From an uncultured Nitrososphaerota archaeon (GTDB lineage Archaea > Korarchaeota > Korarchaeia > Korarchaeales > Korarchaeaceae), in assembly GCA_964594835.1 (NCBI GenBank), contig CAZQNA010000002.1, forward strand, positions 160,001-224,000: DNA of 64,000 nt, in the 5' to 3' direction. The position numbers were made by a program, and so were the translations under genes. The notes under the pieces were generated by a model, which did not search any database, had not been told where the DNA came from, and was given only the letters and a program-made list of their open reading frames with translations. Position 1 is the stretch's first letter. Every line of letters starts with the position of its first letter. Shown in pieces: positions 2,326 to 10,024 of the stretch.

Positions 2326-4824
2326 ATGAGGATCGGCGCCTCGGCGTCGCTCCTCCTCGCCGCCCTCCTGCTGGCCTCAGCGATTCCTCAGGCCGTCTCG
2401 GCCCCTCCGGGCGGTTACTGCTCCGGTCGGGTGCTCTACGACCTGGCCCACCGCGAGTCCCTCGGCAGGTACACCGACGGAATGGACTGCGGGATCTCGG
2501 TCCCGGAGCTCCTCGAGGAGTGGGGCTGCTCCGTCGATCTGAACCACGAACCCCTTGATCAGGTCAACCTGAGCCAATACGACCTCCTGGTGATATACTC
2601 TCCCTGGGAGGAATTCAGCCCGGCTGAGAGGGCGGCCATAGAGGAGTACGTGAGGCGAGGGGGGAGCCTCCTGCTGCTGGCGGACACCCAGTTCCACTAC
2701 GGGAACCGGGCCCCGAACCAGGTCGCCGGGGAGTTCGGCGCAGGGTTCGACGGGGACGAGGTTGAGGCCTGCCGGATCTCCGCGCCATACCACCCGATCG
2801 CCTTCGACCTAGACGACGGGGACCTCTTCAACCCCTTCCTGCTGTGGGACGCCTACGTGAACTCGACGCCGAAACAGGCCGAGGTGGTGGTGAGGTCGCA
2901 GCCCGGGGCGAGGGCGCTGGCAGCGGCCGGGAACGAGTCCATCAGGGCACTCGCGAAGTCGGGTGGGTCGCTCATGGCAATGGTCGCCTTCAGGCACGGA
3001 CTCGGCAAGGTGGTGCTGGGCCCGAGGAACGGGCTGGGCCAGCCCACGGGAGGGCCGTGGTACAACAGGCCGGGCGAGGAGAACCGGGTCCTGGCCGCGA
3101 CCGTCAAGTGGCTCACGGACAAGGACTCGTGGCTGGTGAGGCTGATCTACGACTACTTCCCGGTGCTCATGTTCTCTCGGGGGGAGAGGTGGTACCCGAC
3201 AAGCTTCTACTTCGACGGCGATGCCGATCTGATGAACAACTACGAGAACTACCACGAGGGGGCGCCCTACTACGTTTACGTGCACGTGGCGAACGCGACG
3301 ATAGTCTACAGGGACAACTGCAGGTGGGTAGGCGCTCCGCAGTGGTCGCCCCCGCGGTGCGACGTCGTGGAGAGGGAGGGGATAGCCGTGGAGTACTGGT
3401 TCTACAGCGTGTACAACTACCACCCCGGAAGAATTATTGTTGATAAGGATGTTCACGAGCACGAGTGGGAGAGCGTCTTCGTGTTCTTCACAAACGAGTC
3501 TGGTCAAATGGTTCCCGTCGGCGTGAGGTACAACAGGCACAAATGGCCGAGGTCGGTCTCTTGGGACGACTTGCGAGAGTACGGCGCGCTTGTAGATGAC
3601 ACCCACCCAATAGTTCATGTCGCCAATGGGTCTCACGCGTCCTATGCGCCGTTTGAATCAAGTCGGTTTGATAAGTGGTACCCAGGAGGTCTTATTCTCT
3701 CTTGGGAAGACTTGGGCGACACTTTGAGCATGATTTTAATGCACGCGCGGAAAACCGAGGTTCCGGGGTCAGGAAAGCTTTACTGCGTCCCATCGCCACT
3801 TGGCCGGTTTTGTACGTGGGTAACTAAGTGGAAGGTCATGCATGAGACTCTCAATGGGTCGACACAGTCAGAGATGAAAAGTAAAGGTCTCTGGCTCGAT
3901 AAGTTTGTAGGGAATAACAGTGAGAAGGTTGGTTGGCTTTACTGGTACCTCTCTGCACCATGGGCGAGAGAAGCTTGGAGCCTTGCTGAACTCAACCTGG
4001 GATACCAGCCGGTCAGGCTCAACTTTTTCGTTGCCTGTCCTGTCGACCTCCACATCTATGACCCGCTCGGCAGGCACGTCGGCCTCAACTACACGACCGG
4101 GGAGCTGGAGCTCCAGATCCCGAATGCCACCTACGAGGTCTCGGGGAACGTCACGCACGTGATGATCGACTGGGCGATGGACGGAGAGTACAGGATAGAG
4201 CTCGTCGCTAGAGGAAGTGGGAATTACACATTCCTTGCGGTCGAGTCCGTCGGCGGGGTCGTGACCGACTACGTCGTGGAGACTGGCAACGTGACCGAGG
4301 GAGAGAACATAACCTACAAGTTCTCGACCGCAAATCTCAACGCCACCCTGAGCTTCCTGCCTGGAGAGGTGAGGCCGAGGATGCCCACCCTGGCGAACGT
4401 GACGCTGGTGAACTCCGGGACCGTGAACATCACGTGGGTCAACGTCACTCACCTCCTGCCTGAAGGATATGTCAGGTACGTGGATCACGCATCCGCGTTC
4501 TTGGAGGTCAACGGATCAGTCTACCTGATCCACCCCAGGGACGTGCGAGTGGAGGCCGAGGGTAGCGTCGTGAGGGTATACCTGAACTTCACCTCCGGCG
4601 TGAGGCTCATCGGGCCGGGAGGGGTGAGGGAGATTCACGCCCTTGAGCCCGGCTGGGTCCTGAGGCTGTACTACCTCATTAGGCCAAGTGGATACGTAGA
4701 ACCTGGGAGCCACGAATCTACGGTTATAGTGGAGTACCTTCAGGAGTTCACTGGGGCCATGGCGAGCAGGCTCTCCACTGCGTCTGCGGAGCTGATGGTG
4801 AGGTCAGGGAGGTGGTGCCCTTAG
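2326..4824 (+). CDS. Secreted multidomain protein: GIFT/DUF4350-like N-domain, central Vps62/NPP1-like domain, C-terminal Ig-like region
   Basis: Signal peptide; VLYDLAH..YDLLVIYSP..FSPAE..AI..YVRRGGSLLLLAD; YWFYSVYN..HEHEWE..HPIVHVANGSHASY; CPVDLHIYDP.GRHVG; many N-x-S/T sequons. Confidence 0.8.
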   Translation: MRIGASASLLLAALLLASAIPQAVSAPPGGYCSGRVLYDLAHRESLGRYTDGMDCGISVPELLEEWGCSVDLNHEPLDQVNLSQYDLLVIYSPWEEFSPAERAAIEEYVRRGGSLLLLADTQFHYGNRAPNQVAGEFGAGFDGDEVEACRISAPYHPIAFDLDDGDLFNPFLLWDAYVNSTPKQAEVVVRSQPGARALAAAGNESIRALAKSGGSLMAMVAFRHGLGKVVLGPRNGLGQPTGGPWYNRPGEENRVLAATVKWLTDKDSWLVRLIYDYFPVLMFSRGERWYPTSFYFDGDADLMNNYENYHEGAPYYVYVHVANATIVYRDNCRWVGAPQWSPPRCDVVEREGIAVEYWFYSVYNYHPGRIIVDKDVHEHEWESVFVFFTNESGQMVPVGVRYNRHKWPRSVSWDDLREYGALVDDTHPIVHVANGSHASYAPFESSRFDKWYPGGLILSWEDLGDTLSMILMHARKTEVPGSGKLYCVPSPLGRFCTWVTKWKVMHETLNGSTQSEMKSKGLWLDKFVGNNSEKVGWLYWYLSAPWAREAWSLAELNLGYQPVRLNFFVACPVDLHIYDPLGRHVGLNYTTGELELQIPNATYEVSGNVTHVMIDWAMDGEYRIELVARGSGNYTFLAVESVGGVVTDYVVETGNVTEGENITYKFSTANLNATLSFLPGEVRPRMPTLANVTLVNSGTVNITWVNVTHLLPEGYVRYVDHASAFLEVNGSVYLIHPRDVRVEAEGSVVRVYLNFTSGVRLIGPGGVREIHALEPGWVLRLYYLIRPSGYVEPGSHESTVIVEYLQEFTGAMASRLSTASAELMVRSGRWCP
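4525..4824 (+). repeat. 3' segment of the 832-aa gene, duplicated at ~7355-7657
   Basis: LIHPRDVRVEAEGSVVRVYLNFTSGVRLIGPGG...RLSTASAELMVRSGRWCP vs LIHPRDLRVEPEGGVVKIYLNFTSGVKLIGPGG...RLSTASAKLVVRARGRCWP. Confidence 0.9.
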
Positions 4825-5540
4825 GCCTCAGGGACATGTGGCTGGAGCTCAGGGCCGAGCTGGAGGGGATGGAGAGGGTCGCGCTGGCCGGATTCTTGGG
4901 CCCGGCGCTCATCCTGGCCTTGGTTGCGATCACCGACCCACTGGCCTTCCTCCTCACACCATTCCCACTGTTTCTGGCCTCTCTGGCCTCTAGAGAGAGC
5001 GACAGGACCGGCCCGGCCATAGCGCTGGGAGCCCTGCTAGGATACCTGCTGCTGACGGCCTTCTCCCTCTCCCCCCTCTACCCTCCATTCTATCGCTGGG
5101 TGAACCGTGGCGCCCCGGCGCCCAAGGTGGAGAGCATCCCCCTCTCCTGCAGGGTCTGCTCCCCATCCCTCTTCGCGCTACTCTGGGCGTTCGCGGCGTA
5201 TATCATAATCGCGCTTGAGGCGGTCCCCCTCCTGGCAGCCTGGGTCGCCCTGTCCGCCTACCCCGCCTATATCGCCAGGTCCAGGTTCAGGCGCGTGCCG
5301 AGGCTCCTGCTCATCATGTACTCCCTGACCCTCCTCGGCAACGCCCTGGCCTGCGCACTCTGCCTCCCCGTGTGGCTCGAGGAGCCCCCTCTCTTCTCGG
5401 CGCTGGCGGCCCTGGATCCCGCCGCCTCCGTCACCCTGGCCGCAGCCTGCCTGTGGAGGGCTAGGAATGGGGGAGGTCAGGACCTGCTGGCGTTCCTGAC
5501 GTTCTACTCGCTGATCGGCACCATAAGGTGGTTGATGTGA
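4812..5540 (+). CDS. Paralogous integral membrane protein, array copy 1 (start may be ATG 4836)
   Basis: Multiple TM segments; family motifs MWLELR, DRxGPAIALGALLGYL, SPLYPP.YRW, CxxC, AYPAY.ARSRFRRVPRLLLI, GGG.DLL.FLTFY. Confidence 0.85.
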   Translation: MVPLGLRDMWLELRAELEGMERVALAGFLGPALILALVAITDPLAFLLTPFPLFLASLASRESDRTGPAIALGALLGYLLLTAFSLSPLYPPFYRWVNRGAPAPKVESIPLSCRVCSPSLFALLWAFAAYIIIALEAVPLLAAWVALSAYPAYIARSRFRRVPRLLLIMYSLTLLGNALACALCLPVWLEEPPLFSALAALDPAASVTLAAACLWRARNGGGQDLLAFLTFYSLIGTIRWLM

Positions 5541-5599
5541 GCGCCTGGACATTCCTCTCCCGCCGTGGCGAGTCTCTGCGCGATCGACCGCTTTCACGC

Positions 5600-9186: not shown

Positions 9187-9900
9187 ATGTGGCACGAGCT
9201 CAGGGAAGAGGTCGGCGGCCCCACGATCTGGGTGGTCTTCGCGGGGGCGCTTGGACCCCTAGCGGTGGGCCTGGCGCTGGGCATGTCCTTTTGGCTGGGC
9301 ATCCCCCTTTCCCCTCTCCCCCTCGCCGTGGCCTCGGCCGCTGCCAGGGTGAGCGACAGGTCTGGCCCGGCCATATCTTTGGGCGCCCTGCTGGGCTACC
9401 TGCTTGTGATCGCCCTCATGGCCTCTCCCCTCTACCCTCCTCTGTACGAGTGGGCGGTGAGCGGCTATCAGCTAGCCCCTTCCGTGAGGGGAGTTCCTCT
9501 CTCCTGCAGGGCCTGCTCCCCACCGCCATTTTTCTTCCCCATGCTGAGCCTCCTGTTGGCGTATGCTTGCTCTTACCTCGGGCTGCTTCTAGCTGCTGCC
9601 TGGCTGCTCGTATCATCCTATCCTGCGTATGTCGCCAGATTCAGGTTCAGGCGCGTGCCCAGGCTTCTCTTGATAGCGTACGCATCGGCCCTCGCAATAG
9701 ACTCCTGTCTCTCAGCATCTTGCGCCTCAACCGGATGGATGAGATACGCCCCATGGCTCTTGGCCGTGAGTTCAGCTCTCGATGCTACGCTGGCCGTAGC
9801 CTGCCTATGGAAGGCTCGGAAGGGAGGCGGCAGGGATCTCCTAACCTTCCTCACGTTCTACCTCCTCTCAGGGAGCGTGCTCCGCTACTGGTGGTGGTGA
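9187..9900 (+). CDS. Paralogous integral membrane protein, array copy 6
   Basis: MWHELREEVGGP.. closest to copy 3; ends YWWW. Confidence 0.85.
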   Translation: MWHELREEVGGPTIWVVFAGALGPLAVGLALGMSFWLGIPLSPLPLAVASAAARVSDRSGPAISLGALLGYLLVIALMASPLYPPLYEWAVSGYQLAPSVRGVPLSCRACSPPPFFFPMLSLLLAYACSYLGLLLAAAWLLVSSYPAYVARFRFRRVPRLLLIAYASALAIDSCLSASCASTGWMRYAPWLLAVSSALDATLAVACLWKARKGGGRDLLTFLTFYLLSGSVLRYWWW

Positions 9901-9934
9901 GGTCGGGGAAGTGGTTGCCTTAGGACTCAGGGAC

Positions 9935-10024
9935 ATGTGGCTCGAGCTCAGGGCCGAGCTGGAGGGCTTTTTTCGAGTCCTTTCGGCCGTAGAGCTAAGG
10001 AAGTCTCGCAGAAAAGGTGAGTAG
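9935..10024 (+). pseudogene. Truncated seventh array copy (N-terminal stub)
   Basis: Junction repeat followed by MWLELRAELEG, then unrelated sequence and a stop after 29 codons. Confidence 0.75.

Follow-up and report, generated by a model that had tools for sequence, protein, structure and literature searches.

A candidate polymorphic cognate-pair locus with an array of membrane-protein paralogs in a korarchaeal genome

Introduction

Bacterial Rhs, CDI and MafB loci carry arrays of orphan modules. Here we analyse an archaeal locus that invites comparison with them, at positions 2,326 to 10,024 of a 64,000-nucleotide (nt) stretch of an uncultured member of the Korarchaeaceae (the window; assembly GCA_964594835.1, contig CAZQNA010000002.1, positions 160,001 to 224,000). 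A gene for a secreted protein of 832 amino acids (aa), the big gene, is followed there by six paralogous membrane-protein genes, c1 to c6, and a stub. We tentatively interpret the locus as a polymorphic cognate-pair locus, most likely of the effector–immunity kind, although on sequence evidence this reading is well short of secure. An earlier note on the window had proposed such a system.

The resemblance to Rhs, CDI and MafB loci, of which Zhang et al. 2012 (PMC3482391) give a general description, is one of arrangement. A large secreted-protein gene has a small gene directly 3' of it, cognate by position only, and further 3' copies of the small gene, some of which come after fragments of the large gene's 3' end. 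A delimited segment is replaced between strains within near-identical flanks, and content varies and recombines. The differences are as plain: the variable segment is internal here (residues ~461–560) rather than C-terminal, no toxin, trafficking or pre-toxin domain is recognised, the orphan units come without alternative variable segments, and one polytopic membrane family, in an archaeal host, takes the place of unrelated immunity families.

The VARTIG module of Thermococcales, on the description given in PMC8416519, is likewise archaeal, lineage-restricted and hypervariable, combining a large secreted beta-sandwich protein with a variable set of 3' genes. There, too, smaller open reading frames (ORFs) can be aligned to the large protein's C-terminal region and relatives recombine. 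Its function is given as unknown, with conflict, immunity and self/nonself recognition proposed as hypotheses (PMC8416519). It is on this same description that we set VARTIG apart from the present locus: the C-terminal Ig domain is the hypervariable part there and an internal trough here, and its 3' genes are diverse, some with Ig domains, whereas here they form one membrane-protein family. In the account of Makarova et al. 2021 (PMC8416519), no counterpart of VARTIG was found outside Thermococcales. Our literature searches found neither the present locus nor its membrane family described in main texts, and the word 'toxin' has no occurrence in the main text of a recent Korarchaeota genomics paper.

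Results

Organization of the locus

The big gene overlaps the start of a membrane gene of about 240 codons, as the earlier note had read it: the GTG start of c1 at 4812 lies within the last 13 nt of the big gene. The same 13-nt overlap is found in G001, a congener of the window's own genome (G000). Six intact full-length paralogs and a stub, all on the plus strand, were also correctly recognised, and are confirmed by ORFs, alignment and profile search:

2326..4824, plus strand: big gene, ORF for an 832-aa secreted, probably N-glycosylated surface protein
4812..5540, plus strand: c1, 242 aa, GTG start, hairpin type A (profile E 1e-115)
5794..6483, plus strand: c2, 229 aa, the most divergent copy, 40% identical to c1 (profile E 2.9e-74)
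6587..7312, plus strand: c3, 241 aa, hairpin type C, a type common to P0023
7313..7657, plus strand: 114-aa ORF, a big-gene remnant covering the final ~106 residues, overlapping the c4 start
7645..8364, plus strand: c4, 239 aa, hairpin type B (ORF, alignment, profile)
8375..9124, plus strand: c5, a recombinant mosaic of 249 aa with hairpin type D (repeat families D6 and D7)
9187..9900, plus strand: c6, hairpin type E, 237 aa from ATG 9187 or 266 aa from GTG 9100
9911..10024, plus strand: stub, 19 codons of the family N terminus, then unrelated sequence to the stop

The copies are 40–70% identical to c1, and 43 alignment columns are invariant across all six; the family profile also matches the stub (9914–9988, E 9.3e-4). 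Direct-repeat DNA families (n = 12) tile the array. When the profile of the six copies was run against the whole 1.82-Mb genome, all six matches were the array genes themselves and none lay elsewhere. Every array junction is bridged by Logan contigs of run X1, with 0–2 differences, and most of the array is covered, with 0 differences, in run X2 from a second study. One of the two runs may be the window's own source; the bridging contigs argue that the array is not an assembly artefact.

Two short hypervariable stretches

The big protein is divided into four regions:

2500..2955, plus strand: GldG/DUF4350/IFT52-GIFT-like N-terminal domain, residues ~59–210 (Pfam matches below cut-off)
3112..3705, plus strand: conserved central domain, residues ~263–460, with motifs invariant in alignment profile A9
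3706..4005, plus strand: hypervariable segment, residues ~461–560, with two invariant cysteines and an invariant HETLNG anchor
4006..4821, plus strand: C-terminal sequon-rich region with the tail ...RLSTASAELMVRSGRWCP, predicted beta-rich from secondary-structure hints

Compared with P0002, its closest homolog, the big protein is 95–100% identical over residues 1–360 and 92–95% over residues 561–620, and identity drops to 38–55% over residues 461–560. This segment is 32–67% identical in P0003 and 23–50% in P0004 and P0005. No match to the trough was found in any other frame, which rules out a frameshift artefact. Since the two cysteines and HETLNG are also kept, the trough represents real substitution on a conserved scaffold. 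The window is G+C-rich (0.52–0.72 per 500 nt in the first 16 kb), and the hypervariable segment lies where G+C falls to 0.52 (3501–4000), the remaining 500-nt bins being at 0.59–0.72. The earlier note's placing of the variable region in the centre of the protein, rather than at its C terminus, is therefore borne out. Its companion claim of a conserved C terminus is not: the last ~100 residues, which have no domain match, are 65–79% identical between lineages and thus not especially conserved.

The membrane proteins have a hot spot of their own. Around c1 residues 124–148, pN/pS is 0.96, versus 0.27–0.34 in three conserved blocks. These residues comprise two short helices and a turn, one transmembrane hairpin, and the positive-inside rule would place the turn on the outer face. 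In an alignment of 14 members, seven hairpin types can be told apart. Whole-gene pairwise dN/dS is 0.18–0.60 and all six copies are intact, from which it follows that all are maintained under purifying selection. With both partners varying at one short stretch, the locus behaves, as had been proposed, like a polymorphic two-partner system.

Allele pairing, recombination and copy number

Big-protein alleles and hairpin types are associated by shared or equal-sized contigs. The window allele pairs with hairpin type A (c1), P0002 with P0009 (type B; 12,093-nt contig), P0004/P0026 with P0023 (type C; 22,274-nt contig) and P0032 with P0025 (type F; 3,428-nt contig, where adjacency is forced by the lengths). 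Types B and C are also present in the window array, as c4 and c3. The suggestion that the extra copies match alleles of other strains is supported in that types at later positions here share contigs with other big-protein alleles.

The copies bear the marks of exchange. Copy c5 is a mosaic, its codons 1–80 being 87–96% identical in nucleotides to c4 and its codons 161–260 89–100% identical to c1. The G001 copy resembles c1 in its 5' part and c4 in its 3' part (84–92% nt identity to the 3' two-thirds of c4), c6 is nearest to c3 in its 5' half (65–84% nt), and the hairpin and C-terminal part of c4 nearly match P0009. Relatives from a third study (X5 and X6; 90–99% alike) contain the alternative joints 9437->6891 (side 74) and 7303->4796 (side 35); X5/X6 bins without cover and joints with a side below 30 (2519->10288, 5545->7562 and 7886->8625) were not used. 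Silent pilS-like cassettes of other big-protein alleles were considered and rejected, none being found in the genome.

The earlier note placed a remnant of the big gene's 3' end before every copy, which is true of part of the array. The remnant before c4 is strong: 308 nt at 85% identity to the big-gene tail, or 106 aa at E 1.7e-42 by junction comparison. The corresponding 114-aa ORF is 75% identical to big-protein residues 729–830 (E 1.7e-46), or 74–79% to the tail of the window's big gene and 76% to that of G001. Short but clear remnants precede c5 (31 nt at 93.5%) and the stub (38 nt at 84% to the big-gene tail/c1 start). The claim is marginal for c3 (36 nt at 80.6%, E 2e-4; 16–24 aa at E 0.009–0.5), comes down to 11 nt of similarity for c6 and fails for c2, before which there is no significant similarity to the big-gene tail. 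The 106-aa remnant before c4 suggests a displaced module. The short ones coincide with the sequence GTGAGG, found 8–10 nt 5' of the starts of c1, c4, c5, c6 and the stub, and so may persist simply as translation-initiation regions.

Copy number differs between relatives, as the earlier note had expected. G000 has six copies and the stub, G001 has one full and one truncated copy after its big gene, and G004 has none; indeed, G002–G004 gave no matches to the membrane family. At the syntenic site in G004, beside an aldehyde:ferredoxin oxidoreductase gene, there is only a broken big-gene tail and no membrane gene. The 352-aa ORF at this site (L030, contig C5, 7087–8145, minus strand) joins an unrelated N-terminal part to the frame-damaged last ~250 big-gene residues, and a 349-aa protein with PF20126 is probably the product of this gene. 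In G018, a 71% complete genome of another genus, the big-gene homolog is broken by stop codons (L032, contig C22, 2340–3725, minus strand), a 221-aa ORF keeping the central motifs. No membrane paralog was found in G018. A HepT/MNT-like ORF pair, recognised by eye at L032 1531–2374, adjoins the degraded homolog.

Other homologs of the big protein are in pieces. P0004 (552 aa) is accompanied by P0026 as a separate 297-aa C-terminal piece on a same-sized contig, and the breaks in P0002, P0004/P0026 and P0005 lie in or just 3' of the hypervariable segment. The predicted N terminus of P0004 matches an upstream ORF of the window in another frame (2286–2348, within the region 2265–2348; 90% identity), which suggests a different start call or a 5' frameshift of the big gene in that assembly.

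Signals and flanks of the unit

Candidate signals delimit the array on both sides:

2295..2302, plus strand: TATA-like box ATTTATCT, ~31 nt 5' of the big-gene ATG, candidate archaeal promoter for the whole unit
9968..9973, plus strand: candidate archaeal terminator, a T6 run at the exact point where the homology of the stub ends

Between 2000 and the ATG at 2326, no stretch other than the box reaches 7 of 8 A/T, and the box would be the promoter. Runs of at least T5 number four on the plus strand of 1–12000. Just two lie inside the unit (4024 and 9529), and the T6 run after the stub would be the terminator. Together, the box 31 nt before the ATG, the scarcity of T runs inside the unit and the T6 run beyond it make the unit look like a single operon from 2295 to 9968. 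The GTGAGG sequences would be Shine–Dalgarno-like elements. No Rfam family matched in the window. Pairs of HEPN/nucleotidyltransferase genes of toxin–antitoxin type lie on both sides of the locus, NTP_transf_2 with HEPN on the 5' side (270–1056, minus strand) and HepT-like with Polbeta on the 3' side (10188–11100, plus strand); such pairs on both flanks fit a variable island.

A model of the locus

The effector–immunity interpretation can be put as follows. One transcription unit, running from the TATA-like box to the T6 run, would yield from the big gene a Sec-exported, heavily N-glycosylated protein whose conserved central domain (D-x-H-x-H-x-W-E-S) would carry the activity and whose hypervariable segment (residues ~461–560) would carry specificity. 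Translationally coupled to the big gene, c1 would use its own hypervariable hairpin (c1 residues ~120–145) to recognise or neutralise this segment. Unequal crossing-over and gene conversion would have captured c2–c6, or kept them, as variants, and these would cover the secreted-protein alleles of related strains. Co-transcription, membrane topology, partner contact, toxicity and protection are what we infer here from the sequences.

Such a division of labour has a precedent in colicin DNases and their immunity proteins, where a conserved active domain lies beside a variable surface that alone decides the immunity partner. A colicin-like logic would explain why an invariant D-x-H-x-H-x-W-E-S domain is followed by a hypervariable segment. 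The colicin case differs in having small, soluble immunity proteins and a nuclease as the toxin. A complex prediction for big-protein residues 600–832 with c1, made without folded controls, scored 0.00 against a mark of 0.32 and speaks neither for nor against binding.

The secreted protein

By eye, the N terminus of the big protein reads as a hydrophobic, signal-peptide-like segment. The protein contains 20 N-X-S/T sequons, whereas 2000 shuffles gave 4.05 ± 1.9 with a maximum of 12, an excess that an archaeal surface glycoprotein would be expected to show; 12 of the 20 are at or beyond residue 588. Its sequence has neither a hydrophobic helix nor a membrane anchor at the C terminus. Only eight homologs at E≤0.001 were found among 5.8 billion clusters.

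The N-terminal ~150 residues match the GldG/DUF4350/IFT52 GIFT group weakly but consistently. Residues ~59–210 score 26.9 bits with PF09822 (cut-off 34.7), 27.6 with PF14258 (30.4) and 25.3 with PF23355 (27.2), and P0005 scores 33.4 with PF09822 and 30.0 with PF14258 against the same cut-offs. Precomputed matches to all three families are on record for P0001, P0004 and P0005, and to two of them for P0002. Moreover, profiles A3 and A9 match IFT52 in the PDB with this domain (E 0.011). Unlike the GldG case, no ABC-transporter genes lie within 2.3 kb 5' or 3.5 kb 3' of the locus. The distant homolog P0006 has the N-terminal domain in common and PPC/Ig-like Pfam hints in its C-terminal part, around a different, helical centre. 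Elsewhere in the genome (L040, G000 contig C7, plus strand), two adjacent ORFs of 579 aa (1851–3590) and 868 aa (3583–6189) are unlinked to the membrane family; the 868-aa ORF, long, helical and membrane-spanning by eye, is 35% identical to the GIFT-like domain of the big protein.

The central domain is conserved. The motifs YW.Y..YN and D.H.H.WES and the residue H437 are found in all six sequences aligned in A9, including a 39%-identical, partly degraded homolog from another genus. The domain is probably metal-binding, and the invariant D-x-H-x-H-x-W-E-S suggests a metal-binding or catalytic activity. An AF2 model of residues 263–620, built on a six-row alignment, was unusable (pLDDT 32), and the ESM Atlas gave no usable match for the domain.

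NLP/NPP1 proteins (PF05630) are membrane-permeabilising proteins of bacteria, fungi and oomycetes, with the conserved heptapeptide motif GHRHDWE. They provide the best Pfam and PDB matches of the central domain, all of them sub-threshold. The NPP1 model scores 17.0 bits on the whole big protein, 18.6 on the domain alone (E 0.0022) and 19.6 in a six-frame search, against a Pfam cut-off of 21. PDB entry 3st1, a weak match (E 0.052), aligns HRHDWE with HEHEWE of the central domain, four of the six residues being identical; the G018 homolog has HHHDWE at this place. P0003 scores 12.4 with NPP1, which has no match in P0005 or the G018 ORF. Besides scoring below the cut-off, the domain differs from NLP in being embedded in an 832-aa multidomain protein. 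An NLP-like fold is reported in PMC10818511 for ORF8 of haloarchaeal plasmid vesicles.

The membrane-protein family

The AF2 model of c1 (pLDDT 77.1, pTM 0.75) consists entirely of helices, about eight of them long enough to span a membrane. No Pfam, NCBIfam or PADLOC model reached any of the six paralogs, and a Foldseek search of the c1 model against the PDB gave no match at E≤0.001 among the 240 listed (best E 0.47, TM 0.19). The family profile found eight proteins among 1.84 billion representatives, and a search of 5.8 billion clusters gave 12, among them an entry with the name of a hypothetical protein from a Candidatus Korarchaeota archaeon. Two of 43 genomes of the phylum contain the family, G000 and its congener G001; many of the 43 are incomplete, so that elsewhere the family is 'not found' rather than 'absent'. 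By their sequences, the membrane family and the big protein appear to be two families without described relatives.

Four distant, low-G+C members are 25–35% identical to the family and are full-length homologs (hhalign probability 99.6%, E 4.7e-24). Two distant members, P0015 and P0016, are 63% identical to each other and are both recorded with a longest contig of 33,318 nt; perhaps they are paralogs from one distantly related organism of low G+C. In the ESM Atlas the best score for c4 is 0.79, with GT-C-like families at 0.75–0.77, a range often reached by shuffled proteins, and PF19529 matches c2 at E 0.077. Copy c2 has no SPLYPP..RW loop; other assemblies contain a protein nearly identical to it, P0010, and a related one, P0011.

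Neither Pfam nor NCBIfam lends support to reading the membrane protein as an ABC-2 permease, an archaeosortase or a CAAX protease, and these candidates were rejected; no Pfam permease model matched the paralogs at E≤1. The locus also differs from an archaeosortase/exosortase pair in that the big protein has no C-terminal transmembrane helix and the paralogs have no Pfam or NCBIfam match, the EpsH family included. A basic loop near c1 residues 112–116 carries a C-x-x-C motif, whose first cysteine is nearly invariant in the 14-member alignment, and all copies end in a tryptophan run. A redox role for this loop was rejected, the motif being intact in only four of the six window copies; c3 and c5 are each short of one cysteine.

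Discussion

The effector–immunity interpretation has to be set against several observations. The locus lacks three defining features of polymorphic toxin systems. Only some copies have a significant remnant of the big gene's 3' end in front of them. The pairing of alleles with hairpin types comprises four contigs, two of which rest on equal contig size rather than adjacency, and it is confounded with overall divergence. Orphan effector cassettes with other variable segments are found neither in the array, where tblastn with six homologs detected C-terminal tail remnants only, nor in the genome. Several big-gene homologs are seemingly truncated (P0002 634 aa, P0004 552 aa with P0026 297 aa, P0005 556 aa), owing perhaps to gene decay or to assembly error where strains differ.

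The identity of the toxin is a further difficulty. No toxin, trafficking, Rhs/YD, haemagglutinin, LXG or similar match was obtained with Pfam, NCBIfam or PADLOC. The NPP1 scores of 17–19.6 bits fall short of 21, and the NPP1 model also gave a sub-threshold match in a control genome. Profiles A3 and A9 find no NLP in the PDB, just IFT52 for the N-terminal domain, and the G018 homolog matches no Pfam family and no NLP in the PDB. The NLP link is thus a sub-threshold lead and not a finding, and the toxin effector of the earlier note has not been borne out by an established toxin domain. Heavy glycosylation and a GIFT-like domain are also compatible with an ordinary surface protein.

Finally, distant relatives of the membrane proteins occur in other company. 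The earlier note had named homologs occurring mostly as single genes without a linked secreted protein as evidence that would refute it. This is in part the case, for the distant member on L038 stands alone in this sense: its 5' neighbour, ~425 nt away on the other strand, encodes a HAD-type hydrolase, and there is no big secreted gene. That on L037 has only 219 nt of contig on its 5' side and an MFS transporter and a secreted subtilase on its 3' side. Scans of genome contigs for such distant members brought up no relative. The context on these two metagenome contigs suggests that the membrane family has, or once had, a function of its own.

Kin or self recognition without toxicity would account for much of the same evidence, and we regard it as rather unlikely. 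The secreted protein would then be a surface ligand or adhesin that engages, through its variable segment, the variable hairpin of a membrane protein on its own cell or a neighbour, and with several receptor variants the range of recognised partners would be widened or tuned; Proteus IdsD/IdsE and Myxococcus TraA are analogues. The polymorphism speaks for recognition as much as for effector and immunity, the big protein has the look of a surface glycoprotein (20 sequons versus 4.05, with GIFT-like and beta-rich domains), and no toxin domain exceeds any threshold. Self/nonself recognition is also among the three hypotheses put forward for the Thermococcales module in PMC8416519. However, D-x-H-x-H-x-W-E-S suggests an activity that a pure adhesin would not need, and six co-oriented variants in one probable operon are more typical of immunity arrays.

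A further possibility, again an unlikely one, is an ordinary surface protein with a membrane anchor or assembly partner, the two diversifying under viral receptor pressure, in which case the array would have arisen by unequal crossing-over and been kept for dosage or as decoys. This would suit a sequon-rich protein that has no C-terminal anchor and is translationally coupled to a membrane protein, the confinement of hypervariability to short parts within conserved scaffolds, and the distant membrane homologs without a big gene, which imply a function of the family's own. A membrane anchor would not be expected to be lost completely in close relatives (G002–G004, 0 matches) or to be so narrowly distributed (eight representatives in 1.84 billion proteins). 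Moreover, the co-occurrence of alleles and the tail remnant before c4 suggest exchange of whole modules rather than point diversification.

That the two genes have no functional link, a small transporter or enzyme family having been duplicated neutrally in tandem beside an unrelated surface-protein gene and the variability reflecting relaxed constraint, is improbable: stand-alone distant homologs, weak GT-C-like leads (0.75–0.79, in the range of shuffled proteins), the PF19529 match to c2 (E 0.077) and a hairpin pN/pS of ~1 rather than above 1 would agree with it, but the 13-nt overlap recurs in G001, at least three further assemblies have a big gene and a membrane gene on shared contigs, purifying selection acts on all six copies, and the identity trough of the big protein is inexplicable from the membrane genes.

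We return, then, to effector and immunity as the tentative interpretation. The locus could be the first polymorphic effector–immunity (or kin-discrimination) system of Korarchaeota, with specificity residing in an internal ~100-residue segment and a transmembrane hairpin and with stockpiled variants, a possibility we advance with limited confidence. Almost nothing is known of competition or recognition among uncultivated hyperthermophilic archaea, and if the interpretation is true, the locus provides a testable pair of new families. Its design would be unusual, with specificity placed in an internal segment and a membrane-embedded hairpin, and the six natural variants form a series for mapping that specificity. 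It would also mean that the orphan-array logic of bacterial polymorphic toxin loci has arisen with unrelated parts in another domain of life. Even without toxicity, the delimited allelic trough in the secreted protein singles out a site on which strain-level selection in vent Korarchaeota is strong.

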